Shown here in pieces: positions 15,467-32,000 of a stretch of 32,000 nucleotides of DNA. The position numbers and the translations under genes are program-made. How positions within the stretch are numbered: position 1 is the stretch's first letter; each line of letters opens with the position of its first letter. The notes below the pieces were generated by a model. That model was given only the letters and a program-made list of their open reading frames with translations, did no database searches and was not told the origin of the DNA. Source of the DNA: Acaryochloris thomasi RCC1774 (GTDB lineage: Bacteria; Cyanobacteriota; Cyanobacteriia; Thermosynechococcales; Thermosynechococcaceae); assembly GCF_003231495.1 (NCBI RefSeq), contig NZ_PQWO01000011.1:120001-152000 (forward strand). The letters are read 5' to 3'.

Positions 15467-15689
15467 TCACTCGATTTAAAGCTTTCCCAGAGCAACCATA
15501 GACTATGAAACTGACTCTGTACAATTTCTGAATGCAGAAGAATTTTGATCTTGGCGGTTTAAGGGTTCACTCACTGAAAGACCTGAAAAAATCCGATTGC
15601 GGCAGTCGCGCTTGTCCTCCACACTAAAAGCAGCCAAGTTTAGGCCCTGGCTGCTTGGCACAGATAAGGTGTATCGGTCAGAGGTGACG

Positions 15690-17048: not shown

Positions 17049-19644
17049 TCGCTCTCTCGGAGACTCACCCCCTGACTATCGCTACCAAGTTGGGGGCAGC
17101 CTGCCCGTCAATGCCCCTAGCTACGTTACCCGAGCCAGCGATTTCACCTTCTATGAGCAGTTGCAGAAGGGAGAATTTTGCTACGTCCTCAATTCTCGCC
17201 AGATGGGTAAATCCAGCTTGCGAGTTCAAACGATGCAGAAGCTGCGAGAGGAAGGTGTTGTTTGTGCCGCGATCGACCTCACAGGGTTTGGGACCCAGGG
17301 CATCACACCCGAAAAATGGTACGGCGGTTTTATCAAAGCCCTGGTGAGCGACTGTCAGTTAGAGCTGAACTGGCGAACCTGGTGGAAACAGCAGGATCCA
17401 GCTACCCCGGTCCAGCGATTGCATACGTTTATTGATGAGGTTCTACTACAGGATATTCAGCAAAACGTTGTCATTTTTATTGATGAAATTGACCAGATTC
17501 TGAGCCAAGATGTCTCTGCCGATGATTTTCTATCACTGATTCGGTTTTTCTACAATCAGCGTGTGGATCGGCCCGCCTATCAACGGATCACCTTTGCGCT
17601 GCTGGGTGTGGCAACGCCTTCGGCTCTGATGCAGGATCACGAGCGGACGCCCTTCAATATTGGCAAAGCTATCTATCTGGAAGGCTTTCAGTTCCAGGAG
17701 GCGATGCCGCTTGCCGATGGTCTTCGCGGTAAAGTTCAAGATCCAGATCAGGTGCTGCAAAATATTTTGGACTGGACCGGAGGACAGCCCTTCCTGACGC
17801 AAAAGCTCTGTCAACAGATGGAGGCAGCCGTTAAAGTTAATCCTGACATCACGGTGGACCAGGTCGTCCAAACACAGATCCTTGATAACTGGGAATCTCA
17901 AGATGAACCCGTGCATCTGAGAACGATTTGCGATCGCATCCTCTTCAACAAACGCAAATCGGTCCAGCTTTTGGGCCTTTATCAAAGGGTATATGGCGGA
18001 AACGTCTCAACGAAAAGCAGCCCTGAGCAAATCGAGCTGCGGCTCTCAGGCCTCGTTAAAGACCACGACGGAATCCTTCAAGTTTATAACCGCATCTATC
18101 ATCAAATCTTTAACCAACAATGGATCCAGAAAACGCTCCTTGAACTCCGCCCCTACGCAGCGGCCTTTGATGTTTGGGAGCAATCCCAAGCTCGACCAGA
18201 CAAGCTCCTGGAGGGTAGGGCATTAAAACAAGCCCTCAACTGGGCCGTCGGCAAAAGCCTCAGCGATCGCGACTATGACTTTATCCGGCTCAGCCAGGTC
18301 AAAGCAGAACGGGAAAAACTGCAGCGCAATATCCTGATTCGCAACGTGCTGGCGGTTGTTGGATTGGGCGGCTTATTGATCGGCAGCATCCTTTGGGGAA
18401 GCGATCGCTGGCAGGTCGATCAGAACCAGCAAACCCTCTCGAAAATGAGGAGCCTGCATGAGCAAGTGGACCAGGCTAAAAGACAGAACCGTCAAGCCGA
18501 TGCCCTTTCCCTTGCTCTTCAATCCGGGAAAAAACTCAGTAACTTAGTCCAAGACCAACCGCTCACGACCTACCCCACAACGACACCGCTGCTGGATCTG
18601 CAGCAGCTTCTCAGCGATGAACGTCAGCCTAAACCTCCCACAGAAAACACGCGCTGGAATTTACAGGATCTCGAAGAAGAAGCGATCTGGGACTTAGATA
18701 TTAGCCCCGACGGAAACAGTATTGCCGTCTCCGGCTGGGGCAATACGGTCAGAGTGTTGCAGACGGATCTTCAAAAGCAACTGACCCACAAAGATTCAGA
18801 AATGGTGATCAGCACAGACTTCGATCCTCAAGGTGATCACATTGCAACGGCCTCTTTGAACGGTAACGTCACGCTTTGGTCTCTCTTCGGGCAGTCACTC
18901 CAATACTGGAATACAGAGCAAGAGGCCATTTGGAGCACTCGCTTTAGCCCCAGCGGACAAGTTCTCGCCACCGCTGGCTGGGATGGCACCGTTCGCCTCT
19001 GGGATCTGAAGGGCAGACAGCGCTTTCAGACCTCAAAAAAGCACAAAGGCCCCGTCAAAGACATTCGCTTTAGCCCTGATGGGGAATGGCTTGCCACCGC
19101 GGGAGAAGACGGCATCATTCGACTGTGGAAAGTCTGTTTAAGCCCCCAATGCCCGACAACTGACGGTTCTCAAACGCTGGGTCTCTACAAAAAATGGGAA
19201 GGACATCAAGGCTGGATTTGGAGCCTCGATATCAGTCCCGACAGCAAAGTGCTGGCTTCTGCTGGAGAAGACGGTCTGATTCGATTCTGGAATATCGACG
19301 TCCCTAACACCCCACCGAAACGATGGCGATACGGACAGGGCCGAATCACTCAAGTTCGCTTCAGCTCCGATGGACAGTGGTTAGCGATCAGTGGCTGGGA
19401 TGGGAGGGTGCAGATTCGCGATCGCAACGGCAGACTCTTTACCCAATGGCAGAGCAACCGCCCCGTCACCAGCCTCAGCTTCACCCCAGATCAGCAGACA
19501 ATCTTAGCTGGAACAATCATGGGGGACGTTCATCAATGGCCCGTCAGAAATCTGGAGCAGTTACTAAACGAAGGGTGTGAGCAGCTTCAAAGACTCGATC
19601 CACACCAGGCCACGAAGACTTGTTTAGAACAGGACTACCCTTAG
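17035..19644 (+). CDS. AAA_35/STAND-like P-loop NTPase + hydrophobic helix + 7-bladed WD40 beta-propeller
   Basis: GTG is at 17032 and ATG at 17035. The start overlaps the upstream gene, whose stop is at 17046-17048. The N-terminus YQVGGSLPVNAPSYVTRASD is followed by Walker A SRQMGKSS (17194-17217) and canonical Walker B VVIFIDEID (D-E at 17482-17487). It has TPFNIG and GGQPFL motifs. A hydrophobic segment NILIRNVLAVVGLGGLLIGSILWG lies at 18328-18399. Seven WD40-like blades follow (for example ATAGWDGTVRLWD, ATAGEDGIIRLWK, ASAGEDGLIRFWN) from about 18660 to 19580. Confidence 0.8.
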   Translation: MPSRSRSLGDSPPDYRYQVGGSLPVNAPSYVTRASDFTFYEQLQKGEFCYVLNSRQMGKSSLRVQTMQKLREEGVVCAAIDLTGFGTQGITPEKWYGGFIKALVSDCQLELNWRTWWKQQDPATPVQRLHTFIDEVLLQDIQQNVVIFIDEIDQILSQDVSADDFLSLIRFFYNQRVDRPAYQRITFALLGVATPSALMQDHERTPFNIGKAIYLEGFQFQEAMPLADGLRGKVQDPDQVLQNILDWTGGQPFLTQKLCQQMEAAVKVNPDITVDQVVQTQILDNWESQDEPVHLRTICDRILFNKRKSVQLLGLYQRVYGGNVSTKSSPEQIELRLSGLVKDHDGILQVYNRIYHQIFNQQWIQKTLLELRPYAAAFDVWEQSQARPDKLLEGRALKQALNWAVGKSLSDRDYDFIRLSQVKAEREKLQRNILIRNVLAVVGLGGLLIGSILWGSDRWQVDQNQQTLSKMRSLHEQVDQAKRQNRQADALSLALQSGKKLSNLVQDQPLTTYPTTTPLLDLQQLLSDERQPKPPTENTRWNLQDLEEEAIWDLDISPDGNSIAVSGWGNTVRVLQTDLQKQLTHKDSEMVISTDFDPQGDHIATASLNGNVTLWSLFGQSLQYWNTEQEAIWSTRFSPSGQVLATAGWDGTVRLWDLKGRQRFQTSKKHKGPVKDIRFSPDGEWLATAGEDGIIRLWKVCLSPQCPTTDGSQTLGLYKKWEGHQGWIWSLDISPDSKVLASAGEDGLIRFWNIDVPNTPPKRWRYGQGRITQVRFSSDGQWLAISGWDGRVQIRDRNGRLFTQWQSNRPVTSLSFTPDQQTILAGTIMGDVHQWPVRNLEQLLNEGCEQLQRLDPHQATKTCLEQDYP

Positions 19645-19676
19645 AATGGATCACCATAGAGTTAGCACCTATTGGC

Positions 19677-22600
19677 ATGAAGATCCTACACGGCACCTGG
19701 ATTCCAGACGCAGAGGTCGCTTTTGTCCAACACGGAGCCTTTTACCTATGGATCGAAACAACAGACCCACCGACTCAAAAGTCTAAACAAGCGAACAGCC
19801 ATCCACTGCAGTTGCCTGCAGCATCCTTTGCAGACTTTCTAAACCATGAGTTGGGCATCAAGATCCTTGATAGAGATCTAGAGAAGGCTATTGTTCAACG
19901 CTATTTCTTATTGCCGAGTACTTCTAAGGCCCCTCTCCCTTCCCTAGAACTCTCTCGCTACCTAGAACAAGACAGTTCTGAAACCTTTGAGTGGCAAACT
20001 TGGCAGGTCAACTGCTACACCGTCACGACCTACGACAAATCTGGGTCTCCCGTCAGCAATGTGATCAGGCTGCTCAATGAACTGCATTTTATTGCCCTCC
20101 ATAATCTTGCAGAGATTCAGCTCGGGGCCGATCTCCTGTTTTGGTATCACTATACCCAAGCCTTCAAGACCGTCATCCTGAAAGACCAATACATTCCAGC
20201 CCTGAAATATCAACAGGCCAATGCCTCGCCCAGCCGCAAAGAGAGGAGAACCAGGCGATCTAAAAGTACCAAAGCCTCTCAGCCAGAGCAGCAGACCATT
20301 GAACTCTACCCTGCCTGGGAAATTGTCAGCGAACAGTACGAGTCCACCATTGAACGATATTTAGATTCTATGCCCTTGGTCTGCGTCGCGGGTTTTGCGA
20401 CCCCTCCCGAGGCGCAGCAGTTCTATGACCGTGAAACAATACTGCGGCACTGTTCAGAATATCTGCTTCAGGACATTGTTACGCATACGCCCTCTGCCGC
20501 CAGCTTCGAGAAAAAAATTGCGGATACCCTCATCCATGACTGCATGTTCGCTGACCGCCACGGCAAGAACCATAACTGGGAGACCTATGAGCAGTGGCGA
20601 GGATGGCGCGATCGCATCCAACATACCCAAACCGCGATTCCCTTTAATCTTTGTTTTCAGCTTCAAGATCCTGCCAAAGCAGAAGACGCTTGGGAGTTAC
20701 AGTTTCTTGTCGCCCCCAAATCAGATCCCTCCAGACAGATCTCTCTGTTGGACTATTGGCGATTGAAACCTGAGCGCCAGGAAGATCTGCTCAAGCATGT
20801 CGGCGAGGGCTTTGAGCAACATCTGCTGCTCAATCTAGGTTATGCCGCTCGTATTTACCCCAAACTATGGCAGGGGTTAGAAACAGATCAGCCCACCCAT
20901 ATTTCTCTCTCTCTAGATATAGCCCTGGATTTTCTACAGGAAGCAGCCTGGGTGCTTGAAGCTGCTGGGTATAAGGTGATTGTGCCTGCTTGGTGGACGC
21001 CCCAAGGTAGGCAAAGAGCCAAGGTCAAGCTACGGGCCAAAGGCAAATCACTGTCCTCAGGTGAAGACAAAGCTAACAGCTATTTCTCCATTGAGAAACT
21101 GGTGCAGTACAAGTATGAGCTAGCGATTGGTGGCAAAAAAGTTTCTGAGCAGGAATGGTCAGAGCTGGTGCAGGCAAAATTTCCGTTAGTCCAGTTCCGA
21201 GGTCAGTGGCTCCATCTAGACCAGGACAAAATGCAGCAGATGCTGGAGTTCTGGAAAACACGGCAGGCCGAGAATCCCGAAATGTCGCTCCTAGAAATTA
21301 TGCGACTAGGGGCAGACGGAGGTGACGATCTCGAACTTGACTTTAACCGTGACCAAAGCTTGGCTGAGATGATGGCTAAGCTCCACGATAAGAGTCAACT
21401 GGACACCATCGCCGATCCCGAGCAGCTTCAAGGCACGCTGAGAGACTACCAAAAGCGAGGAGTGTCCTGGCTTCATTACCTTGAGCAGTTGGGTCTCAAT
21501 GGCTGCTTGGCTGATGACATGGGTCTAGGCAAAACCGTCCAGGTCATTGCCCGACTGGTCCAAGAGCGGGAACTGGCAGCACAGGAGAATCTCAAGGTAC
21601 CGCCAACGCTATTAATTGCACCCACCTCTGTTGTGGGGAACTGGCGACGGGAGATGCAGAAATTTGCGCCTCACCTAACGGCAATTGTCCATCATGGGGG
21701 CGAACGTGCCCAGGACAGCAAAGACTTTAAGGCAATGGTCCGCCAGAACGATCTGGTGATCACCTCTTTTACCCTGGCTCGCAAAGACAGCAAATTGCTC
21801 TCAGCGATTACGTGGCAGCGGGTGGTCTTAGACGAAGCCCAAAACATCAAAAACCCCAAGGCCGCGCAAACCAAAGCCATCTTGAAACTAAACGCCCAGC
21901 ATCGTCTTGCACTGACGGGAACCCCCGTAGAAAATCGACTCTTGGATCTGTGGTCAATTTTCAACTTCCTTAATCCGGGTTATCTAGGTAAACAGGCCCA
22001 GTTCCGCAAAAGCTTTGAAGTGCCGATTCAGAAACAAAATGACCGGGTTCAATCTGCTACTCTCAAAAAATTGGTGGAACCCTTCATTCTGCGCCGCATG
22101 AAGACAGACAAATCAATCATCAAGGATCTACCCGATAAGGTCGAGCAAAAGCTCTACTGTAATCTCACAAAAGAGCAAGCCTCTCTCTATGAAGCCGTTG
22201 TCAAAGAAGTCGCAGGAGAACTTGATGAGCTAGACGGCATTCAGCGAAAAGGCATGATCCTCTCCACGCTGATGAAGCTCAAGCAAATCTGTAACCATCC
22301 GCGTCAGTTTCTTCAGGATGAAAGTGACTTCATTCCCGAGCGATCGCATAAGCTCGGTCGGCTGACAGAGATGATCACTGAGGCCATTGATGAAGGAGAA
22401 AGTCTACTCGTCTTTACCCAGTTCACTGAGCTGGGGGATGCGCTGCAAAAATATATTAGTAAGACTCAACACTACAAGACCTACTACATCCACGGTGGAA
22501 CCAGCCGCAATAAGCGCGAACAGATGATCTCAGAATTCCAAGACCCAGAAACGGAACCCTCGGTGTTTATCCTTTCCCTTAAAGCAGGCGGCGTCGGCAT

Positions 22601-22886
22601 CACCCTCACAAAAGCCAACCACGTCTTCCACTTTGACCGCTGGTGGAACCCTGCCGTCGAGGATCAAGCCACCGATCGCGCCTTCCGCATTGGGCAAAAA
22701 AAGAATGTCTTCGTTCACAAGTTTGTGGCGATGGGGACTTTGGAAGAACGCATCGACGAAATGATTGAAGATAAAAAGAGATTAGCGGGTTCCATTGTCG
22801 GATCTGATGAGTCTTGGCTAACGGAGCTAGATAACGAAGCATTTAAGAAATTGATTGCCCTCAACAAAACCGCCATTTTGGAGTGA
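19677..22886 (+). CDS. SNF2-family DNA-dependent ATPase/translocase (bacterial YwqA/HelZ-like, with SNF2-associated N-terminal region)
   Basis: The ORF-track start at 19620 is TTG and overlaps the upstream gene. The ATG at 19677 gives MKILHGTWIPD, a typical N-terminus of this family. Helicase motifs are LADDMGLGKT (I), LDEAQNIKN (II), ALTGTPVEN (III) and ATDRAFRIGQKKNV (VI). The upstream region FLQEAAWVLEAAGYKVIVPAWW is typical of the bacterial SNF2-associated domain. Confidence 0.92.
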   Translation: MKILHGTWIPDAEVAFVQHGAFYLWIETTDPPTQKSKQANSHPLQLPAASFADFLNHELGIKILDRDLEKAIVQRYFLLPSTSKAPLPSLELSRYLEQDSSETFEWQTWQVNCYTVTTYDKSGSPVSNVIRLLNELHFIALHNLAEIQLGADLLFWYHYTQAFKTVILKDQYIPALKYQQANASPSRKERRTRRSKSTKASQPEQQTIELYPAWEIVSEQYESTIERYLDSMPLVCVAGFATPPEAQQFYDRETILRHCSEYLLQDIVTHTPSAASFEKKIADTLIHDCMFADRHGKNHNWETYEQWRGWRDRIQHTQTAIPFNLCFQLQDPAKAEDAWELQFLVAPKSDPSRQISLLDYWRLKPERQEDLLKHVGEGFEQHLLLNLGYAARIYPKLWQGLETDQPTHISLSLDIALDFLQEAAWVLEAAGYKVIVPAWWTPQGRQRAKVKLRAKGKSLSSGEDKANSYFSIEKLVQYKYELAIGGKKVSEQEWSELVQAKFPLVQFRGQWLHLDQDKMQQMLEFWKTRQAENPEMSLLEIMRLGADGGDDLELDFNRDQSLAEMMAKLHDKSQLDTIADPEQLQGTLRDYQKRGVSWLHYLEQLGLNGCLADDMGLGKTVQVIARLVQERELAAQENLKVPPTLLIAPTSVVGNWRREMQKFAPHLTAIVHHGGERAQDSKDFKAMVRQNDLVITSFTLARKDSKLLSAITWQRVVLDEAQNIKNPKAAQTKAILKLNAQHRLALTGTPVENRLLDLWSIFNFLNPGYLGKQAQFRKSFEVPIQKQNDRVQSATLKKLVEPFILRRMKTDKSIIKDLPDKVEQKLYCNLTKEQASLYEAVVKEVAGELDELDGIQRKGMILSTLMKLKQICNHPRQFLQDESDFIPERSHKLGRLTEMITEAIDEGESLLVFTQFTELGDALQKYISKTQHYKTYYIHGGTSRNKREQMISEFQDPETEPSVFILSLKAGGVGITLTKANHVFHFDRWWNPAVEDQATDRAFRIGQKKNVFVHKFVAMGTLEERIDEMIEDKKRLAGSIVGSDESWLTELDNEAFKKLIALNKTAILE

Positions 22887-22891
22887 TCGTC

Positions 22892-23728
22892 ATGGCTCAA
22901 TTTAGTCGCACTTGGTGGGGACAGCGGTTCATCGCAGCCCTAGAGAGATTAGTCGATCCCGGTCGTCTCAGTCGTGGTCGCTCCTATGCACGGGGGGGCA
23001 AGGTTAAAAGTTTCAGGATTAAGAAGGGTTTGGTCACGGCTGAAGTTCGCGGCTCTGTTAATCCCTATTTCGGAGTCTATAAGGAACCGCTCTACATCAC
23101 CACTATTGAATTCCAGTCGATTAGTAAAGCAAACTGGGCGGCAGCGATTGCCTATGTGGCCTCTAAAGCTAGCTTACTTTCGCGCCTAATGCTCAACGAA
23201 ATTCCTGACAACATTGACGATGCATTTGCCAAGCTAGATTTGCATCTGCTGCCAGACAGTGAATCAGATTTCACCACCACCTGCTCATGCCCAGACTGGA
23301 GCAATCCCTGCAAGCATATTGCTGGGGTTCATTACTTAATTGCCAAAGAGCTAGATAATGATCCGTTTTTGTTGTTTGAGCTGAGGGGACTCTCTAGGGA
23401 TAACCTTAAAGCTGAGCTAGAGAAATCGCCACTGGGGCAGGCGCTCTCAGCCGAACTGGCGGCGCAGCAATCGACATCCGAACCCGACCCGACCTATTTC
23501 ACGCAGCCTAAAACACAAACAATAGAGACCCCAGACCTCAAGGAATTTTGGCAGGGGACCAAACGGTTACCCCAGACGCTTGAGCCATTGCCACCGGCCA
23601 CAGTGCCTGCAGTCTTGATCAAAAAGCAGGGAGACTATCCGGCCTTTTGGCCCAAGGACGGATCTTTTATTGCGGTGATGGAAGAACTCTATGAGCGAGT
23701 TAGAAATAAAAATTCAGGACTTCTCTGA
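22892..23728 (+). CDS. SWIM zinc-finger protein (partner of the SNF2 ATPase)
   Basis: The ATG at 22892 (MAQFSRTWWGQRFI) lies 5 nt after the SNF2 stop. An alternative GTG at 22883 overlaps that stop. The SWIM signature CxC-x6-CxH is CSCPDWSNPCKH (23282-23317). The N-terminal WWGQRF...RGRSYARGGKV is typical of stand-alone bacterial SWIM proteins encoded beside SNF2 genes. Confidence 0.87.
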   Translation: MAQFSRTWWGQRFIAALERLVDPGRLSRGRSYARGGKVKSFRIKKGLVTAEVRGSVNPYFGVYKEPLYITTIEFQSISKANWAAAIAYVASKASLLSRLMLNEIPDNIDDAFAKLDLHLLPDSESDFTTTCSCPDWSNPCKHIAGVHYLIAKELDNDPFLLFELRGLSRDNLKAELEKSPLGQALSAELAAQQSTSEPDPTYFTQPKTQTIETPDLKEFWQGTKRLPQTLEPLPPATVPAVLIKKQGDYPAFWPKDGSFIAVMEELYERVRNKNSGLL

Positions 23729-23760
23729 GTTCAGGGGGGGATGCCTTCTTCGTGAATCCG

Positions 23761-24783
23761 TCATCGATATTGCCCTACCTGTTGCTGAATAAGAGCAACA
23801 TTATTGCGGTCGACAAAGCTAGGCCCAGTCGAGATGATAGGGCTAGGGGGACTAAACGCATGGCGCTGAATCCAGGTCAGCCACTGGACCGCCAAATAAC
23901 CTTCTAGATAGGGCTGCTGATCAATCGCAAATAGCGTTGTCCCCTGTTCAATTTTGTTGAGAATAGTGCGACTCAGATCGAATGTCCCATGGCTAAAGGC
24001 CCCCTTTCGATCTGGAATGACCTGATAAAAAGGTACGGCTGCTTCTGGCCCCAGAGTCAAAAAAAGATTGGTCTCAGGATTCTCATCCATATAGCGCTGC
24101 AAAATCTTTTTAGATTCGGCTGGATTCGGCGTGATTTTGACCATCTCCGCCTCCACACCAGCTTCACTCAATGCTTCAAAGAAACCCTGGCAGCGAGCCT
24201 CAAGATTTAAGGCACCGGGCTGATGATTAATACAGGCTCCCTTGGTTGCAGCCTCAGATTTCGCCAGCAACCGTTTCCCAGCCTCATATCCGCCCTGTCG
24301 TTCATCAGCTCCAATGTAAGCCCGATAAGGAATGTTGTCCTGCTCTGGTCCTGAACCTGCGTTGTAGGCAATTACAGGGATATCAAATTCCATCACTGCC
24401 TTTGTTAGTGACGCTCTGAATTTGTCTGGATCGATCACAGCGACACCAATAGCGTCTGGCTTCGTGGGGGCATTGACCGCTGACTCTATTAGCCGCGTCA
24501 CTTCATCTGGATCAAACGTATTGGGGCGGCGAATCGTCACCTCAACGCCTAAATCCTGGGCGGCATCATGGATTCCAGTTTCAACAACACACCAAAAGTA
24601 AGCCCAGGGACAGGAAGCGTGCTGAATTAACGTCAAATTCAGATTGTTAGCTCCAGACTGCTCCAGGCTCTGATTTGCGACAGGCGCTATTGCAGAGGGT
24701 CGGATCTGTGGCCGACAGGCAACCATCACAAACACCAACAGACAGATCACCATCGCTTGGCGCACAAATTTGACTCTCACCAT
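23761..24783 (-). CDS. Periplasmic sugar-binding-type (PBP1/LacI-like fold) substrate-binding lipoprotein, orphan
   Basis: 340-aa ORF. The N-terminal signal has a lipobox-like VMVAC. The body resembles ribose/monosaccharide-type ABC substrate-binding proteins (GVAVIDPDKF..., IPVIAYNAG..., YIGADERQGGYEAGKRL). No permease or ATPase gene lies adjacent. Confidence 0.72.
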   Translation of the reverse strand: MVRVKFVRQAMVICLLVFVMVACRPQIRPSAIAPVANQSLEQSGANNLNLTLIQHASCPWAYFWCVVETGIHDAAQDLGVEVTIRRPNTFDPDEVTRLIESAVNAPTKPDAIGVAVIDPDKFRASLTKAVMEFDIPVIAYNAGSGPEQDNIPYRAYIGADERQGGYEAGKRLLAKSEAATKGACINHQPGALNLEARCQGFFEALSEAGVEAEMVKITPNPAESKKILQRYMDENPETNLFLTLGPEAAVPFYQVIPDRKGAFSHGTFDLSRTILNKIEQGTTLFAIDQQPYLEGYLAVQWLTWIQRHAFSPPSPIISTGPSFVDRNNVALIQQQVGQYR

Positions 24784-25026
24784 AATTTATTCAGAAAAAT
24801 AAATTTAAATATAGTGCGATTATACCGCGCTAAAAATTGCAACCTGAATAATCCTGAATATATTTCATTTAACTACTGAAAAGCAGAACAAATCCTATTG
24901 TCGACAAGAGATATTTTATTGATAATCAGAACATGAATTAAACGAGATAGGCCTACTGATTGTTTTTTTGTCAAAAAGGAATCAGAAATACAAAGACAAA
25001 GCCTGAGGCTTTAAAGGATCTGAGTA

Positions 25027-25377
25027 ATGAACAATTTAAAACTGGAGCGAAACTGGCCTCAGGCGATCGTGGCTTGCTTAACTGTTATGCCACTTGTCGC
25101 TTATCCAATCTTTCAACATGCGACGCAAGATGATGTCACTTTTACCATTGATAAGGCAGAGCGAGTTCTAGACGGAAGATCCTCTCGGTATTTGATCTTC
25201 ACGAAAGATGAAACTTTTGAGAATACAGACTCTATCGCATTCTTTAAATTTGACTCCTCTGATATTTATGGTCGCATAGATGAGGGTAAAACCTATAGAG
25301 CAAAAGTCTCGGGAGCAAGGATGCCGCTGTTCTCTTCGTACCGAAATATTATCGAAATTCAGGAGAAATCAAAATAA
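25027..25377 (+). CDS. Small membrane-anchored protein, DUF1523-like
   Basis: 116-aa ORF with ATG at 25027. The N-terminal hydrophobic anchor is WPQAIVACLTVMPLVAYPIF. The core YLIFTKDETFENTDSIAFFKFDSSDIYG...KVSGARMPLFSSYRNIIEI resembles the DUF1523 consensus as I recall it (...FRNEDT...YFKFDSADLQA...YGWR.P.LS.FPN). The gene is AT-rich. Confidence 0.5.
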   Translation: MNNLKLERNWPQAIVACLTVMPLVAYPIFQHATQDDVTFTIDKAERVLDGRSSRYLIFTKDETFENTDSIAFFKFDSSDIYGRIDEGKTYRAKVSGARMPLFSSYRNIIEIQEKSK

Positions 25378-25444
25378 TTCACTATTGTTTTGTCGAAGAG
25401 CAGTTATCAGAAATTTTGCGGTTATAGAAGGTGGAATAGAAGAC

Positions 25445-26131
25445 ATGAATCGGTCACAAACGGTCATTAGAGCGACCTGGAATTGGTTATGGGGGATGCC
25501 GATTGAGGCAGGGGGCGAAATCTCTGCTCAAATCGGTGAAGACAGCATTGATGATCTAGCCCAGTCATTTCAAAAGCTGGTTGATTCAGTGGGGCTTCAA
25601 AGGTCCGCATTAGCAGAGGCTCTGCGTTTACATGAAGAGACCGAGCAACAGGTGAAAGCCCTCGGTGAACAAGCGGAGCAACTAGTGGCGGCAGGTGAAG
25701 ACAATTCAGCCCTTGCCGTACTGGCAGAACAGGATGTTTTGGATGAGTATCGACCTCAGCTTGAGGCCCAGGTGCAGTTTGCTAAACAGAATCTAGCTGA
25801 AGGAACAGCCCGGATGCAGGAAACCCAGCTAGAGCTGAGAAAGATGCAGGCTCAGCAGAAAATGGGGGCTTCAACGATGCGGGTCACCCAAGCACTTGAG
25901 CAAGCGAACCAAGCGGCAGGCATCGATAGTCAAGCTGCAATGCGGCGCTTTGAAAAATCTCAAGCCGCAATTCAACGTCGCAATTTCAAAGCGCAGGCCA
26001 CCTCCGAGGTTCAGGGGGAATTAAAGGGAACGTCCAGAGCGATTAAAGCCCTGAATGCTCAAGAGCGCTTAGCCAAGCTGAAGGCAAAACAGGCTGCAGA
26101 CAATCTAGAAGAAGGAGAAAAACAGTCATGA
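25445..26131 (+). CDS. Divergent PspA/IM30-family (ESCRT-III-type) coiled-coil protein
   Basis: The ORF-track start at 25280 would overlap the upstream gene. The ATG at 25445 is preceded by GAAGGTGGA, giving 228 aa. The protein is almost entirely helical heptad sequence. The segment AEQLVAAGEDNSALAVLAEQ parallels the PspA hallmark A..AL..G.EdLAreAL..k. The late segment DSQAAMRRFEKSQAAIQRRNFKAQA parallels PspA ...a.FeRme.ki...eAeA. The N-terminal amphipathic stretch is TVIRATWNWLWG. Confidence 0.62.
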   Translation: MNRSQTVIRATWNWLWGMPIEAGGEISAQIGEDSIDDLAQSFQKLVDSVGLQRSALAEALRLHEETEQQVKALGEQAEQLVAAGEDNSALAVLAEQDVLDEYRPQLEAQVQFAKQNLAEGTARMQETQLELRKMQAQQKMGASTMRVTQALEQANQAAGIDSQAAMRRFEKSQAAIQRRNFKAQATSEVQGELKGTSRAIKALNAQERLAKLKAKQAADNLEEGEKQS

Positions 26132-27675
26132 CGATCGAAAGGAAAGGACTTCCTCCCATCGCGTATATCAGTGTTGCGTTGCTGGTCGGTACCGGATATT
26201 TTGGTCTCAATTTGATCAATCAAGGGGAGAGTGCTCCTCTCGCACAGGTTCAGGCTTACGGCAATGAAGAAAGACAGCTTACGGTGCTGGGCGATACGTT
26301 CTCTGGCTACAGCACGCTTAGGGCTGGTCCCTTTGCCGCGAAGGTCACCAAGGCAGAGTTGGGGATTCAGTATCAAGATGAATTTGATCAAGCTGCCAGG
26401 GCGAAGGCGCTCGGCGGTAGAGCAGACATTATTGTCACGACGCTAGACCAGTATCTTAAGCATCAGCCGAAAGGCCGGATCGTGGGCTTAATTGATAAGA
26501 CGGTGGGTGCTGATGCGGTGGTGCTCAATACTCCGCAATATCCAGACCTCAAGAGCTTGAGTGATGTTGCCAAGGTTCGGGCCTCAGTCTCTGCCCCTCT
26601 AAAGCTGGTTTATTCTGCTGGAACCCCCAGTGAGTATCTGGCGAAGCTCTTGGATCTTAAGTTTGAGGGGTTGAGCCTATCTGATTTTGAGGTTGTAGAG
26701 GTGGAGGAATCCACTCAGGCTTATGAGTTGTTGAGGTCAGATGAGCAGGTTGCGATCGCAATCCTTTGGGAACCCTTTGTTTCCAAAGCCCGCCAAGAGG
26801 GCAACACGGTTGTTCTCTCTAGTAGCGACGTTCCCGACGCCATTATTGACGTGATTGTTGCCAGCGATCAGCTCATCAAAAGTCGCCCCGATGACCTGAG
26901 CCAGTTCTTGACGCTCTACTACCAACACACCGACCAGCTTATTCGTGACTCTGGTGTACTGAGTCAGCAGATCGGCGACGACGGCGATCTCTCTACAGAT
27001 GACGCTGCTTCAGTCGCCAGTGGCATCGACTTCTTTACCGCCCTGGAGTCAAACCAGTGGATGAACGCTGGAACGCTAGAGAAACGGATTGAGACCACCT
27101 CCGCCGTCCTCTCGCTAACGGGAGAAGTAACCGACATGATCAAGAGTCCTCAAACCCTTTATACCCGTGATTTCATTGCTCAGGCTGTGAAAAATACCAA
27201 ACAGGTTGTTGCTTCAATCTCAGCCACTGATCCAGAGTTAGCGAAGGTGCTACAGGGCCAGAAGTCCTCGACCACTAAAGCAAAAGCAAAGGTTACCCCA
27301 CAGCAAATTCAAGCCGCACCGAAGGTGGGTAACTTCAAAGTTAGGGGTGAGGTCAAGTTCGCAACCGGGTCTGCCTCGCTCACGGGAGAAGGCCAATCCA
27401 CGCTCACAGCGCTAGCCAAAGAGATCAACGAATTTAATCCCGTTACCATTGCCATCAACGTCGTGGGACATACTTCAAAGACAGGTTCTACCACTACAAA
27501 CCAAGCTCTGAGTCAGCAGCGGGCGCAGGTCGTGGCGAATTATCTCCGTTCTAGCGATGTGCAGCCCACTCTCGTGGCAGAAGGCAAAGGCTTCTCTGAA
27601 CCTCTGTTAGGCATCGATCCAGCTAGCCCCGAGCAACAGCGTACAGAAATACAGCTCAGACGAGTCGGGGGATAG
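26128..27675 (+). CDS. Membrane-anchored fusion: NMT1/SsuA-type solute-binding-fold domain + C-terminal OmpA-like domain
   Basis: The ATG at 26128 overlaps the upstream stop (ATGA) and has the SD-like GAAGGAG at 26111-26117. The N-terminal TM helix is IAYISVALLVGTGYFGLNLI. The middle region (GADAVVL, TPSEYLAKLL, AILWEPFVSKA, IIDVIVAS) resembles nitrate/sulfonate/taurine-type periplasmic binding proteins. The C-terminal 113 aa (27334-27672) match the OmpA_C pattern F..GSA.L...G...L..LA......I.V.GHT...G....N..LSQQRAQ.V..YL. Confidence 0.7.
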   Translation: MTIERKGLPPIAYISVALLVGTGYFGLNLINQGESAPLAQVQAYGNEERQLTVLGDTFSGYSTLRAGPFAAKVTKAELGIQYQDEFDQAARAKALGGRADIIVTTLDQYLKHQPKGRIVGLIDKTVGADAVVLNTPQYPDLKSLSDVAKVRASVSAPLKLVYSAGTPSEYLAKLLDLKFEGLSLSDFEVVEVEESTQAYELLRSDEQVAIAILWEPFVSKARQEGNTVVLSSSDVPDAIIDVIVASDQLIKSRPDDLSQFLTLYYQHTDQLIRDSGVLSQQIGDDGDLSTDDAASVASGIDFFTALESNQWMNAGTLEKRIETTSAVLSLTGEVTDMIKSPQTLYTRDFIAQAVKNTKQVVASISATDPELAKVLQGQKSSTTKAKAKVTPQQIQAAPKVGNFKVRGEVKFATGSASLTGEGQSTLTALAKEINEFNPVTIAINVVGHTSKTGSTTTNQALSQQRAQVVANYLRSSDVQPTLVAEGKGFSEPLLGIDPASPEQQRTEIQLRRVGG

Positions 27676-27676
27676 C

Positions 27677-28141
27677 ATGATGGCTGAATCTTTACGTCAT
27701 GCTTACCGACGCTTTGGAGGCATGAAACAGTCTGAGGTGCCTTGGCTGGTTTGGCTCTTAGAGAACCCAGACAGCCCCTTGGCCCTAGCTGGAGCTATCC
27801 CGTTAAAAGAACATGATTACCTGCATATCTTGCTCAATCGAGGGAAATCCCCAGACGACGAGGCTTTTATCATTGGTTTTACAATGGGGAATGATATCCA
27901 CCTCAACAAAATTCACATATGGATATTTAAGCGGGTCGTTCGTTTTCTATACCCAACAGACTATCGACTGACACTGAAGCAGCTAGAGAGCTTTGATTTA
28001 GGACTGCAGCTCGGGAAACAACTTCCCACGAAAAATCTCTGCCGCTTTGATTATTCATCTGTTGAGAGCTGGAGCGTAGATCGAGTGAGAGCGATTCTAC
28101 ACCTCAATCCAATGGTGTCTCTTGCTAAGAGCGACAGATGA
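27677..28141 (+). CDS. Small hypothetical protein with a Coq4-type HDxxH-x11-E motif
   Basis: The ATG at 27677 (a second at 27680) lies 1 nt after the upstream stop, giving 154 aa. The motif HDYLHILLNRGKSPDDE (27812-27862) fits the Coq4-family metal-binding signature HDxxH-(x)11-E exactly. At 154 aa the ORF appears shorter than I would expect for a full Coq4 domain (not checked), so the assignment is tentative. Confidence 0.4.
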   Translation: MMAESLRHAYRRFGGMKQSEVPWLVWLLENPDSPLALAGAIPLKEHDYLHILLNRGKSPDDEAFIIGFTMGNDIHLNKIHIWIFKRVVRFLYPTDYRLTLKQLESFDLGLQLGKQLPTKNLCRFDYSSVESWSVDRVRAILHLNPMVSLAKSDR

Positions 28142-28146
28142 CAACG

Positions 28147-31100
28147 CTAGGCAGAGAAATATTTTGCGATCGCATGATATACAATAATCGCCGTCGTAGA
28201 TTGTTCTGGGTGCAACTGCTCACTCTCATCCATCGTCAGATTAATGCGCTCCGTCTCCAGTAAATTGAGCTGGGTAATCTGGTCCTGCATATTGGGGCAA
28301 GCCGGATAACCAAAGCTATAGCGAGAACCCTGATAACGCTGGGCCAGCATATCTCGAATATTGTCCGGCTCAGACTCGCCATACCCCAGCTCCTGTCGAA
28401 TTTGAACGTGGGTCCATTCAGCCAAAGCCTCTGCCGTTTGGACAGCAAGACCATTGAAATAGAGATAGTCGGTATATTCATCAGCGGCAAAAAGCTTCTG
28501 AGCGTATTCAGATGCAATCTCACCCACCGTCACCGCCTGCATCGGAAAGACATCAAAGCGACCTTGAGCCTGCTCTTTTGGTAAAAAGAAGTCAGCAATA
28601 CATAATCGTCGCAGAGATCTTTGACGCGGAAACTCAATGGTAGCAATCGGTTCAACGCCATTCGAGCTACCCCCATCTTGAGCCACCTGCGGATCATAGA
28701 TGAGCAGCGTATTCCCCTCTGACAGGCAAGGGAAATAACCATAGATGGCCTGTGGATGGAGGAGCTTCTCCGCCACAACCTTCTGCTTCCATTTCTCTAG
28801 AATCGGATAGGCTTTCTCTGCCAACATTGCGTCATAGTCTTCCCGTGACTGCTCTTTGGGTTTACGGAACTGCCACTGTCCTGCGATTAGAGCCTGCAGA
28901 TCTAAGTACCAAAACAGCTCTTCTAGAGAAACGTCCGTTGGCTGGATGACGCGAGTGCCCCAGAATGGCGGTGTGGGTCGCTCAATATCAATCTCAACCG
29001 CTTCCGAACGTCGAGTATCAACGGGGCCATCGGCCTTCGCTTGCTTTTCCTTCGGTAGCTTCTGGGCGGCGAGAGGTATCTCATCTTCTTCATCGAGGAA
29101 TCCTTTGAGGTTATCCCAGTTATCTGCGGTCTTGGCAGGCATCAGTTTTTCCATGAAGTGCAGGTCAGCAAAGGCATCTTTGCCGTAGATGACGCGACCG
29201 TTGTAGGCTCCCTGACAGTCTTGATAGACAAACTTCTGAGTCAGGGCTGCGCCCCCCAAAATAATAGGAACATCAATGCCTTTCCCGTTGAATGTTTCGA
29301 GGTTGTCCTTCATAAAGGCGGTTGATTTTACTAACAAGCCGCTCATTGCAATACAGTCAGCGCCGTGTTCTCGGTAGGCCGCAATGATGTTATCTACGGA
29401 CTGCTTAATGCCGAGGTTGATGACGGTATAGCCGTTGTTGGACAGAATAATATCGACGAGGTTTTTACCAATGTCGTGGACGTCGCCCTTAACGGTGGCA
29501 ATGATCACCGTGCCTTTGGTGCTGGCGGTGTCCTCTTTATCCATGAACGGTTCTAGAAAGGCCACTGCAGCCTTCATCGTTTGAGCCGACTGGAGCACAA
29601 AGGGGAGCTGCATTTGACCGGAGCCAAACAGTTCACCGACCACTTTCATGCCGTTGAGCAAAAAGGTGTTGATGATTTCTAGGGGTGGATACTGCTCTAG
29701 GGCTTTATTGAGCTGATCATCTAGGCCAATGCGTTCGCCATCGATAATGTGATTTTTAAGTCTCTCTTCGATGGGGAGGCTTTCATCAACGCTGCGATCG
29801 CGTTTTGTCGTCTTCCCTTCAAATAATGTTGTCAGCTTCGTCAACGGGTCGTAGGAGCAAACCTCACCGTCAAACTCACGGCGATCGTAAATGAGATCCA
29901 GGCAGACCTTTTTGTGATCTTCTTCGATCTTGGCAAGGGGCAGAATTTTGCTGGCACTAACAATGGCCGCATCCATGCCCACCGCCATCGCCTCATTGAG
30001 GAACACTGAGTTGAGGGTTACCCGTGCCGCTGGATTGAGACCAAAGGAGACATTAGAGACCCCCAGAATGATGTGACAGCCCGGAAGATTCTCTCGAATT
30101 TTCTGAATCGCCTCAACGGAGGCTTTACCATTCTCACGATCTTCTTCAATTCCAGTGGAAACCGGCAGTGCCAAAGGATCAAAAAAGATCTCATAGGCAG
30201 GGATGCCGTATTCAACAGCGGCTCGATAGGCCCGCTGGGCGATCTCGAACTTTTTCTCGGCAGTTCGAGCCATGCCGTCTTCGTCAATGGTGCCGACAAC
30301 CACACCTGCACCATATTGCTTGGCGAGTTCTAATACCTTGAAGAAGCGTTCTTCGCCATCTTCGTAGTTGGTGGAGTTGAGGATGCACTTGCCCCCGGCC
30401 ACTTTAAGACCCGCCTCCATCTTGGTCCACTCAGTTGAGTCGAGCATCAGCGGGAGCGAGACCGTATTAACCAGGCGAGAGGCCAACTCCTTCATGTCTT
30501 TTTCGCCGTCGCGGCCCACGTAGTCTACGTTGACATCGAGGATATGTGCGCCCTCTTTGACTTGCGATCGCGCTAGTCCGACCAACCCATCCCAGTCTTC
30601 ATCATTGAGCAGCGTCCGACATTTCTTAGACCCGCTGGCATTCAGCCGTTCACCTACAATCAAGAACGAGTTGTCCTGTTCATAGGACTGGGGACTCATA
30701 ATTGAGGCCGCAGACGGTGTATAAGACAATGGTGTATAGGGTGGCAAGTCAAAACGAGACCCAATTTCACGTTGCTTGGGTGTTAGATCCTTAGCCATCT
30801 CAGCAAGTTGAGCAATATGGTCTGGACGCGTACCGCAGCAGCCTCCGATAACTTGAACGCCCAAATCTTCAATGAAATGCATCAACGCCATCCGCAACTC
30901 CATCGGCGTTAAGCGATAATGAGCCTGACCTCCGACATTCTCCGGCAAACCCGCGTTGGGTATGCAGGACACTACAAAAGGAGACTGCTCAGCAAGATAC
31001 TTGATGTGCTCTTTCATTAAGTCTGGGCCTGTCGCACAGTTGAGACCCAAAATATCAATAGGATAGGGTTCCAAAACAGTCAGCGCAGCCCCAATCTCTG

Positions 31101-31719
31101 ACCCAACTAACATCGTGCCAAAGTCTTCCACCGTCACCGAGACCATCAGTGGCAGGCGAGACCCTTTCCTTGAAAAGACTTCTTCGATAGCCGTCAGCGC
31201 AGCCTTAATCTGTAAAACATCCTGGCAAGTTTCAACTAAAAGCAGATCAACCCCACCGTCATACAGCCCTTCTGCTTGTTCGATGTATGCGGCCTGCAGT
31301 GCATCAAAATCGATGTGGCCCAACGTCGGCAGCTTTGTTCCTGGTCCCATCGAACCGGCGACAAACCGGGGCTTCTCCACTGTTGAGAATTCTGCGGCGA
31401 CAGACTTCGCTAACTCTGCTGCTGTTTTGTTCAGTTCGTAGGCGCGATCGCCTAAATCGTACTCGGCCAGAGTCACAGAAGTTGCGCCAAAGGTGTCGGT
31501 CTCAACCACATTGGCACCGGCCTTGAAAAAATTACGATGGACCGTTGCCACCGCCTCTGGCTTTGTCTTTACAAGATACTCATTGCAGCCCTCATACTCA
31601 GCTCCACCAAAGTCCTTGGCAGTCAGATTTTGATCCTGCAGAGAAGTTCCCATCGCCCCGTCAAACACAATTACAGGACGCTCAGGACTGTGGAGATGGT
31701 CTAAAAAGGGGCTACGCAT
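28147..31719 (-). CDS. metH: Cobalamin-dependent methionine synthase
   Basis: The ORF is open to 31809, but the homology-like start is the ATG at 31719 ([25 protein letters not shown]). It has the Hcy-binding domain with IGGCCGT, a pterin-binding domain, the B12-binding DVHDIGKN (DxHxxG) motif and a C-terminal AdoMet-activation domain. The approximately 1190-aa length is typical. Confidence 0.95.
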
Positions 31720-32000
31720 AGGACTGCCATAGGACTGCATCAGACAAGAAAAAATTAGTAATTTCGCTGCAATCAGGATAATCGCTAGAATTGCTATCCA
31801 TTGTGCCAAGTTTTAGACACGGTGTTCCAGCGTCGTCGCTCAAGAAAGCAGTTTTCAAAGGATCATTGTGCTATTAGCCTCGCAAAGCTTGTCAACCTTG
31901 AAGCAGTCGCTTTACTCTGTAATCGCATAGACTGCCCGATAAAGATAACTAATTGAAGCAATAAAAAAATCTATTGTCTGATGCCTCTACTTGAGCGACC

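Follow-up and report, generated by a model that had tools for sequence, protein, structure and literature searches.

In a stretch of 32,000 nucleotides (nt) from the cyanobacterium Acaryochloris thomasi RCC1774 (NCBI RefSeq assembly GCF_003231495.1, contig NZ_PQWO01000011.1, positions 120,001 to 152,000 of the forward strand), here called the window, four genes termed p1 to p4 follow each other on the plus strand. All positions are counted from the first letter of the window. An earlier note, made from the sequence alone, had regarded the four genes as a candidate for an undescribed envelope or membrane-remodelling cassette. The computational analysis described here places two of them, p2 and p3, at the centre. 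They encode a predicted PspA/IM30-family protein and a membrane-anchored solute-binding protein with an OmpA-like domain. Together, they could well constitute a two-gene PspA-type membrane-maintenance module that is extended by p4 in the Acaryochloris/Synechococcales lineage.

The locus in Acaryochloris thomasi

The genes and their main features are as follows (aa, amino acids; TM, transmembrane):

25027-25377, plus strand: p1, 116 aa; small N-terminally anchored, DUF1523-related protein; lineage-specific accessory gene
25445-26131, plus strand: p2, 228 aa; predicted divergent PspA/IM30-family protein
25475-25501, plus strand: TWNWLWGMP motif of p2, residues 11-19, in the N-terminal helix-α0 region
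26128-27675, plus strand: p3, 515 aa; bitopic protein; a short tail in the cytoplasm and one TM helix precede a TauA/SsuA-like solute-binding domain, which a linker joins to an OmpA-like domain
26152-26169, plus strand: PPIAYI juxtamembrane motif of p3, residues 9-14, at the cytoplasmic start of the TM helix
26275-27282, plus strand: periplasmic solute-binding domain of p3, NitT/TauT (NMT1) type, residues ~50-385
27340-27663, plus strand: OmpA-like domain of p3, residues ~405-512; GHTS at 27466-27477 replaces the canonical G(Y/H)TD
27677-28141, plus strand: p4, 154 aa; short, putatively Coq4-like protein
27812-27862, plus strand: HDxxH-x11-E motif of p4, residues 46-62

The four open reading frames (ORFs) and their junctions lie as first described, with all coordinates correct: p1 and p2 are separated by 67 nt, p2 and p3 overlap by 4 nt (ATGA, 26128-26131), and 1 nt lies between p3 and p4. 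For p2, the start at 25445 is preferred over the longest-ORF start at 25280. It is preceded by the Shine-Dalgarno-like sequence AAGGTGG and must be right because the orthologues all begin with MNR(S/T). The p2 protein is identical (100%) to C1752_03902 of A. thomasi RCC1774, which UniRef names a PspA/IM30 family protein and NCBI a hypothetical protein. The NCBI product of p4 has 153 aa, i.e. it starts at the second ATG (27680), a trivial difference. The GC content amounts to 0.41 for p1 and to 0.51-0.52 for p2 and p3, with 50.2% for the whole window.

The PspA/IM30-related protein p2

Searching the PDB sequences with p2 alone yielded chance matches only, and a family profile was needed. This profile, built from 18 members, matched the solved Vipp1 sll0617 (7o3w/8qfv) with E=2e-11. 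The match is colinear and extends over positions 4-218 of the profile vs. approximately 5-218 of Vipp1. The profile also matched Vipp1 from Nostoc (8e-11) and, weakly, E. coli PspA (4whe, 0.014) and Snf7 (0.022). The Pfam model PspA_IM30 (PF04012) was found in 17 of the 18 family members (E below 0.1), with a best value of 1e-12. In addition, p2 weakly matches the model of the effector LiaH (E=0.0011), which is itself a PspA homologue. Judged from these profile comparisons, p2 is a real but divergent protein of the PspA/IM30 family (ESCRT-III superfamily). The earlier note had called it PspA-like and had named a generic coiled coil as the alternative; with the match to Vipp1, this alternative does not apply.

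The p2 family is small. Close homologues are found in Acaryochloris and the Thermosynechococcaceae, and the others, at 24-30% identity, are clear PF04012 members. In the 18-sequence alignment, residues T11, W12, N13, W14, L15, G17 and P19 are invariant, even in relatives at 23-25% identity. This N-terminal block, T-W-N-W-L-x-G-x-P, aligns with helix α0 of Vipp1. Its summed Wimley-White interfacial energy is -4 to -5 kcal/mol vs. +3 for the Vipp1 segment, so that it seeks the membrane interface much more strongly; the computed hydrophobic moment of the p2 N-terminus is not above that of Vipp1. A metagenome scan with the PspA alignment returned one uninformative locus, as a low-specificity pattern swamped the scan.

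The anchored solute-binding protein p3

The three-part architecture first proposed for p3, a TM helix followed by a periplasmic-binding-protein fold and an OmpA-like domain, was borne out by Pfam, AlphaFold2 and Foldseek. At the N-terminus, a basic cytoplasmic tail of ~8 residues precedes one hydrophobic helix. The OmpA-like domain was found by Pfam at residues 411-493 (2.6e-14, 53.8 bits vs. a cut-off of 27.2) and has PA0833-PD (6e-12), YiaD and OmpA as relatives in the PDB. The NMT1 match (PF09084) of the binding domain is marginal (2.4e-4, 21.5 bits vs. a cut-off of 20.5), and the p3 sequence profile found a solved relative for the OmpA-like domain only and none for the binding domain. The latter was resolved by a structure search. 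The AlphaFold2 model has a mean predicted local distance difference test (pLDDT) value of 83.6, and the solute-binding domain lies mostly above 90. Foldseek placed this domain closest to TauA (6ssy; E=7e-13, target template modelling (TM) score 0.80, root mean square deviation 3.2 Å over 319 columns), followed by SsuA, a ThiY-like protein, NrtA and CmpA.

The p3 family is widespread: in the GTDB genome collection, 335 stretches code for a relative. Nearly all of the 80 loci kept are cyanobacterial by title, and a few are titled just 'uncultured bacterium'.

Conservation of the gene neighbourhood

In the 80 loci around p3 homologues and in the contigs of PspA homologues, ORFs were called, and the neighbours were clustered and searched with family profiles. 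The informative set comprises 72 distinct p3 genes with upstream DNA. In 22 of these 72 loci, a p2-family PspA gene is located immediately upstream of p3. The PspA-linked p3 genes belong to two p3 clades: one composed of Acaryochloris, Thermosynechococcaceae and some metagenome-assembled genomes of Synechococcales, the other of Leptothoe, Adonisia and marine Leptolyngbyaceae. On their outer sides, the two clades have unrelated neighbours: a Peripla_BP_4 gene in the Acaryochloris clade, and carboxysome shell/ccm genes together with a DM13 protein gene in the Leptothoe clade. In the Acaryochloris-clade loci L001-L003 and L006-L008 as well as in the window, p2 and p3 are joined at -4 to +2 nt.

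The gene p4 follows p3 without an intervening gene in the Acaryochloris clade only, in 8 distinct loci or 9 with the window (among them L001 and L006-L010). The p3-p4 gap, determined in all seven distinct related loci in which p2, p3 and p4 were all read, is -4 to +5 nt where both starts are clear. The Peripla_BP_4 gene, which the cassette of the earlier note had omitted, occupies the same position in L001, L006 and L007 (78-87% identity) despite differing outer flanks and is as well conserved in the Acaryochloris clade as p1.

The conserved core consists of p2 and p3, and p4 is a lineage-specific third member. Synteny of the block extends beyond A. thomasi to other genomes, and in this respect the idea of a four-gene cassette stood. 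As one evolutionarily coherent unit it did not, as only the p2-p3 pair spans two clades.

In the Leptothoe/Adonisia clade (L014, L016, L019, L037, L041, L042 and others), p3 is followed by a gene for a ~590-aa protein without Pfam match and then by one for a 2-oxoglutarate (2OG)-Fe(II) oxygenase (PF13759). Upstream, a carboxysome shell gene (tandem BMC) and the DM13 protein gene are present. Since the ~590-aa protein contains HDIWGH, a p4-like domain was considered and tested for, with no match.

Paired N-terminal motifs and exchanged binding domains

The motif PPI[AV]YI at the start of the TM helix, after the basic tail, is present in all 22 PspA-linked p3 proteins and in 5 of the 50 proteins without such a link (Fisher p=4.5e-14, with no correction for phylogeny or shared ancestry). 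The same motif, in the form PPPIVFI, was encountered outside the p3 family. Among the distant PspA relatives, those examined that have WNWL[WL]G (P0020, P0021, P0023-P0026) are all encoded upstream of an anchored binding-domain protein; none of these proteins is a p3 homologue. The genes downstream of P0024 and P0026 touch the contig end; a Pfam type was assigned for those following P0020, P0021, P0023 and P0025 only. Downstream of P0021, P0023 and P0025, the protein is of the Peripla_BP_6/ANF_receptor type, at separations from a 4-nt overlap to 57 nt. Downstream of P0020, on a Microcoleaceae contig, it is of the PBP_like_2 type, with a DUF3352 gene further downstream. With one exception, these proteins display the anchor ...(K/R)xxxPPPIVFIL...; the protein after P0021 (L164) has PFPPIVPI instead. 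Thus, a constant PspA N-terminus and a constant anchor are combined with an exchanged periplasmic domain, which is the strongest evidence here for p2 and p3 as a functional unit. Comparison of these sequences suggests the anchor rather than the periplasmic domain as the point of contact.

Upstream of the Peripla_BP_6-linked PspA in L160/L161 (4980-5927), a ~315-aa protein with a Gly/Ser-rich stretch, a hydrophobic segment and no Pfam match is encoded. A divergent Cache/PAS histidine kinase and a GerE-type response regulator then follow. The ~315-aa protein, the kinase and the regulator may be further partners of the Peripla_BP_6 variant.

The Coq4-like protein p4

Residues H46, D47, H50 and E62 of p4 are invariant in 35 homologues, with exactly 11 residues between H50 and E62. 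The family motif is HDxxH-x11-(D)E, and further conserved blocks are WLLENPxSP and GFTMGN. HDxxH(x)11E is the metal motif of Coq4, where a binuclear metal site is situated beside a hydrophobic tunnel (PMC10680789). In p4 the motif first reported from the sequence is intact. The protein itself has no match in Pfam or NCBIfam. Nine of the 35 family members match Pfam Coq4 (PF05019) weakly (best 0.0018), and in the PDB the family profile best matches the 'putative ubiquinone biosynthesis protein' 3msq, with E=0.07 and along the 100 C-terminal residues. The AlphaFold2 model of p4 (pLDDT 93) gave a single meaningful Foldseek match, Alr8543 (6E12; probability 0.98, query TM score 0.54, E=0.15). No structural match was found in BFVD. 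As p4 is ~60-80 residues shorter than Coq4-like proteins, it is, judged from motif and model, best described as a shortened Coq4-like protein, with membership in Coq4 proper left aside.

A 147-aa p4 homologue with 42% identity is encoded on marine contigs (L086 5001-5444; L087 1398-1841), where it adjoins the T4-like baseplate genes gp25, gp6 and gp8 and a Peptidase_M15 gene. Neither p4 nor the phage-contig homologue P0228 has a tblastn match in GenBank phages. On two IMG/VR contigs (L123, 3423-3881 and 3878-4531; L137, same coordinates), a 152-aa OmpA-domain gene overlaps the ORF of a p4 homologue by 4 nt. This order, OmpA and then a Coq4-like gene, repeats that of the window. No PspA or p1 homologue was found beside the viral p4 genes. 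Looking up P0188, a p4 paralogue of A. thomasi, gave no record.

The DUF1523-related protein p1

The match of p1 to DUF1523 (PF07509) is weak (14.9 bits, E=0.017, cut-off 23; model positions 92-141 of 176). No other Pfam model matches the three p1 orthologues, for which DUF1523 is likewise sub-threshold (E=6e-4 to 0.017, 15.6-19.6 bits), and the DUF1523 match recurs in 33 of 40 sampled p1 relatives (best 1.5e-10). The description of p1 as a small, anchored, DUF1523-like protein therefore holds on a weak but recurring signal. By the same sequence evidence, p1 is assigned to a related short-form family rather than being a clear DUF1523 member. An exhaustive search yielded 1785 representative clusters at E up to 0.001, and the family is matched by phrog_301 'secreted protein' (3.8e-19). 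At this locus, p1 was found only in the window, L006 and L007 (A. marina MBIC11017). In A. marina NIES-2412 (L001 7740-7919), only the C-terminal half of p1 is left and contains an in-frame TAG; p1 is apparently a pseudogene there, in an otherwise intact block. The low-GC gene p1 was thus added recently, is dispensable and stems from a phage-borne family.

The divergent spacer and the flanking genes

The flanks of the four genes comprise the following features:

23761-24783, minus strand: divergently transcribed Peripla_BP_4 protein, 340 aa; N-terminal signal; Pfam Peripla_BP_4 7.7e-32
24784-25026, no strand: AT-rich divergent intergenic spacer, 243 nt; blocks conserved across four genomes
28147-31809, minus strand: metH, convergent; begins 5 nt past the p4 stop codon

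Both the AT-rich spacer ahead of p1 and the convergent metH gene, 5 nt past the last stop codon, were confirmed. The GC content of the spacer is 0.296 (29.6% vs. 50.2% for the window), and just 0.07% of the 243-nt stretches of the window are equally AT-rich. Alignment of four Acaryochloris-clade genomes (the window, L006, L007 and L001) revealed conserved blocks at 24830-24905. Positions 24843-24862 contain a tandem 10-nt repeat, CCTGAATAAT/CCTGAATATA, to which a third partial copy, ACTGAAAAGC, is added. Conserved CCTGAATA repeats occur in the spacer. The conserved repeats may represent an operator common to the Peripla_BP_4 gene and the cassette. Promoter-like hexamers are located at 24837-24864 and 24898-24926; they were given no weight, as consensus scans for promoters and terminators performed no better than on shuffled sequence. 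Rfam yielded no RNA family match in 24500-28400, and no tRNAs were found anywhere in the window.

The Peripla_BP_4 neighbour has a Cys in VMVAC that suggests a lipoprotein, and no ABC (ATP-binding cassette) permease or ATPase gene adjoins it. Further upstream, a gene for a 1088-aa SNF2 helicase (19620-22886) overlaps by 4 nt with one for a 281-aa SWIM zinc-finger protein (22883-23728). The helicase matches the PADLOC models DpdE and ZorD (~1e-132) via its helicase region (residues 482-1078); no other Dpd or Zorya components were seen beside the SNF2/SWIM pair. An AAA_35 ATPase gene (15597-17048) is overlapped by an AAA_35+WD40 gene (17032-19644). In A. thomasi and likewise in A. marina NIES-2412 (L001 1434-5334), this STAND-like pair precedes the cassette. 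Between the STAND-like pair and the cassette, SNF2 and SWIM (19620-23728) occur only in A. thomasi, and TacA and an acetyltransferase only in A. marina.

A candidate membrane-maintenance module and its alternatives

For the two-gene PspA-type membrane-maintenance module composed of p2 and p3, with p4 as its lineage-specific extension, the arguments for and against appear to us about evenly balanced, and we regard it as the most likely reading. The p3 anchor would be the membrane partner of p2, comparable to PspB/PspC for PspA or LiaI for LiaH, and p2 would be recruited or nucleated by it on the inner side of the membrane, at sites tethered to the wall. Input would come from the periplasmic binding domain, through the occupancy of its ligand site or through the geometry of the envelope, with the OmpA-like domain holding the complex in position against the wall. 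Since the cytoplasmic part of p3 consists of the ~8-residue tail only, any output must pass via the TM/juxtamembrane segment to a protein at the inner leaflet, where helix α0 of PspA sits in characterised systems. The small metal-binding protein p4, related to a prenyl-lipid-binding family, probably has a membrane lipid of this pathway as its target, which it would sense or act on; p4 may do so by binding or modifying a prenyl lipid or some other lipid of the membrane. The tight linkage of p4 to p3, together with the 4-nt overlap between the viral OmpA-domain gene and p4 homologue, suggests that p4 is truly connected to the system. The comparisons directly show the homology of each protein, the kept adjacency of p2 and p3, the overlaps or 1-5 nt gaps between the genes of the Acaryochloris clade and the joint occurrence of both N-terminal motifs with three binding-domain families. 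The physical interaction between p2 and p3, the direction of signalling, the identity of the ligand, wall binding and the role of p4 are all points that we infer.

Several observations weigh against the module. By itself, p2 scores only 15.1 bits against PspA_IM30 (E=0.018), below the gathering cut-off of 33.9. In the OmpA-like domain of p3, Ser450 stands at the position of the Asp in the TD motif (GHTS vs. GYTD/GFTD in the aligned PDB chains) and is invariant in 17 homologues. In solved OmpA-like complexes, this Asp and the Arg of N-x2-LS-x2-RA contact the peptide stem, with the Asp contacting diaminopimelate. The Arg is retained in p3 (R465). As the domain is devoid of the diaminopimelate-contacting Asp, wall binding is plausible, not canonical, and may be altered or lost. 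In the Leptothoe clade, p2 and p3 are 97-338 nt apart, and co-transcription is not assured. The anchor motif does not provide independent evidence within the p3 family, and it is borne by five p3 proteins without an adjacent PspA (L020, L040, L060, L066, L078). Its recurrence across families was seen on few metagenomic contigs, of which several are close relatives. Furthermore, the families of p4 and p1 are also found in phages and unrelated contexts: p4 homologues on 71 IMG/VR viral contigs (L089-L159), p1 homologues in 402 GenBank phage records. Finally, in 12 loci a p3-type gene is located directly upstream of genes for a 345-aa NMT1 binding protein, a permease and an ATPase, which fits a role in transport better than one in recruitment.

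These 12 loci (L052 3290-7497; L022, L023, L027, L029, L055, L062, L063, L065, L069, L070 and L075; from Nostoc, Coleofasciculus, Symploca and Xenococcaceae) are ABC importers with an extra wall-tethered binding protein. In L052, two tandem p3-type copies precede the importer genes, and a CobW/HypB/UreG-type GTPase is also present in four of the 12. Accordingly, p3 of A. thomasi might be an accessory wall-tethered binding protein of a NitT/TauT-family ABC importer encoded elsewhere, and the PspA-like p2 would protect the membrane around this importer or respond to it. The structural closeness of the p3 binding domain to the transporter proteins TauA, SsuA and NrtA, and the ABC permease and ATPase in published PspA-PBPB+OmpA contexts (PMC11237479) point in the same direction. 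For these operons, Popp et al. (PMC11237479) suggest essentially such a role. However, in the 22 PspA-linked loci, the four genes to the left and the four to the right of p3 never include an ABC permease or ATPase. In the window, none was detected near p3 from 22 kb to the end (ORFs of 22000-32000; Pfam on the genes at 15.6-28.1 kb). The ABC-linked p3 genes form a separate clade that lacks the PPIxYI anchor motif. Moreover, one PspA clade pairs with three unrelated transporter-class binding domains, and a shared anchor explains this more easily than a shared substrate. We therefore consider a transport-centred role rather unlikely, though it is the strongest of the alternatives.

It is less probable still that there is no dedicated module, and that p2, a general-purpose PspA paralogue, and p3, an independent envelope protein, are neighbours by descent and co-transcribed by chance. 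About 50 of the 72 informative p3 loci have no PspA neighbour and present contexts such as SelO, NfeD, a ROK kinase, the 590-aa protein or the 2OG oxygenase, and synteny over four or five genes is largely limited to close relatives of Acaryochloris. Chance would, however, have to account for a p2-p3 adjacency kept in two clades with unrelated flanks, for overlapping start and stop codons, for N-terminal motifs that co-occur across non-homologous binding domains and for analogous contexts in other phyla.

Least of all do we expect a phage-derived or anti-phage island acting, e.g., in superinfection exclusion or abortive-infection membrane remodelling: the phage-borne relatives of p1 (with the phrog_301 match) and p4 (beside T4-like baseplate genes), the strong DpdE and ZorD matches of the SNF2 protein, whose SNF2/SWIM pair adjoins the cassette, and the ZorB matches of the p3 OmpA-like region (4e-10) are set against PADLOC results that are negative for p1, p2 and p4 and concern in p3 a generic OmpA/MotB-like domain without ZorA/MotA partner, against an A. 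marina locus with TacA and an acetyltransferase in place of SNF2/SWIM, which thus lie outside the conserved block, against the genome-typical GC content of p2 and p3 and their vertical distribution in cyanobacterial clades, and against viral p4 genes with neither a PspA nor a p1 homologue as neighbour. A known defence system was rejected on the same PADLOC results, which comprise nothing for p1, p2 and p4 and only generic OmpA/MotB-type ZorB matches for p3.

Beyond the two-gene module of p2 and p3, a bolder proposal can be made, which we regard as possible but clearly less probable. There may be a distinct, cyanobacteria-centred class of PspA/ESCRT-III systems, in which a WNWL[WL]G effector is recruited or gated by a single-pass protein with a PPPI[VA][FY]I anchor and an interchangeable periplasmic domain (TauA-like plus OmpA, LivJ-like or PstS-like). 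This would be a remodelling switch controlled by a ligand or the state of the envelope and independent of PspBC, LiaI and AAA+ proteins. The switch of Acaryochloris would, in addition, be linked with a lipid-binding metalloprotein that resembles Coq4 and has phage-borne relatives.

To our knowledge, the targeting of bacterial ESCRT-III proteins (PspA, Vipp1) to membrane sites is understood only in a few models (PspBC, LiaI), and not in cyanobacteria. Should a ligand-binding anchor in the periplasm indeed recruit this PspA clade, the pair would offer a simple, genetically defined two-component handle on PspA targeting and a direct link from periplasmic chemistry or wall attachment to remodelling of the cytoplasmic membrane. 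The binding-domain families exchanged on a constant anchor are a natural experiment that argues for modular sensing. That phages carry relatives of the Coq4-like partner hints at phage manipulation of this membrane or lipid process. Should the pairing merely be related to transport, it would be an ordinary variant of an already catalogued operon type.

Comparison with known systems

Coq4 and Alr8543 from Nostoc PCC 7120 (6E12) share with p4 the exact HDxxH-x11-E motif. However, p4 has ~150 aa compared to 210-230 aa and matches the C-terminal part only. Because cyanobacteria make plastoquinone and not ubiquinone, a Coq4-type enzymatic role is not assumed for p4.

MotB, ZorB and TssL resemble p3 in that a single N-terminal TM helix is combined with a periplasmic OmpA-like domain, and the ZorB/MotB models match p3 residues 354-494. 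By contrast, p3 contains a 340-residue solute-binding domain between the TM helix and the OmpA-like domain, its TM helix (IAYISVALLVGTGYFGLNLI) has no Asp or Glu, and no gene for a MotA/ZorA/ExbB-type partner is present near p3. A stator-like (MotB) role of p3 was considered and rejected, as there is neither a partner gene nor an acidic TM residue.

Vipp1/IM30 (sll0617; 7o3w, 6zvr) is the best solved relative of the p2 profile and colinear with it from helix α0 to α6. Unlike Vipp1, p2 lacks the C-terminal extension (228 aa vs. 266-277 aa for the matched chains), has a 5-residue insertion after α0 and a tryptophan-rich α0.

PspB/PspC and LiaI are the membrane partners of PspA and LiaH, respectively. 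The Psp system of E. coli (PspA with PspB/PspC) and the Lia system of B. subtilis (LiaH with LiaI) are similar to the p2-p3 pair insofar as a PspA/IM30 effector is encoded beside a small-tailed membrane protein, a possible receptor or anchor. Homologues of PspB, PspC (toast-rack), LiaI or LiaF were not found among the four proteins with Pfam and NCBIfam. In contrast to these classical partners, p3 carries large periplasmic domains of ligand- and wall-binding type. Moreover, no PspF- or LiaRS-type regulator is adjacent, the neighbours being Peripla_BP_4, SWIM, SNF2 and metH.

The closest precedent was catalogued by Popp et al. (2024, mSystems, PMC11237479), who listed the contexts 'PspA->SIG+PBPB+OmpA->...' and 'PspA->SIG+PBPB->...' in Handelsmanbacteria and Archangium (Cand. 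Handelsmanbacteria OGG56892.1; Archangium gephyra AKJ06548.1; PMC11237479 supplement). The Archangium context includes SIG+DUF3352->ABC-ATPase (PMC11237479). The authors proposed that OmpA binds peptidoglycan and the PBP domain the transported solute (PMC11237479). To call the module undescribed, as had been done initially, is thus too strong, since PspA followed by PBP(+OmpA) was already listed for other phyla. As in the window, where p2 and p3 overlap by 4 nt, a PspA gene is directly followed by a gene for an anchored periplasmic-binding protein, in one case with OmpA. Similarly, a DUF3352 gene is located downstream both in Archangium and in the cyanobacterial p2 relative L004. The operons of Popp et al., however, continue with genes for an ABC permease and ATPase, a TM-anchored Snf7 and a tandem AAA+ ATPase, whereas in the window only p4 and the convergent metH lie downstream. 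The binding domain is of the NMT1/TauA type instead of PBPb, and p3 is followed by a Coq4-like gene. The main text and one supplementary file of PMC11237479 make no mention of a cyanobacterial version, a Coq4-like partner, the WNWLWG/PPPIxFI motif pair or the exchange of binding domains. What is known is therefore the general association of PspA with PBP+OmpA; new here is the cyanobacterial variant without ABC, Snf7 and AAA+ components, with a different binding domain, a Coq4-like partner and the pair of N-terminal motifs.

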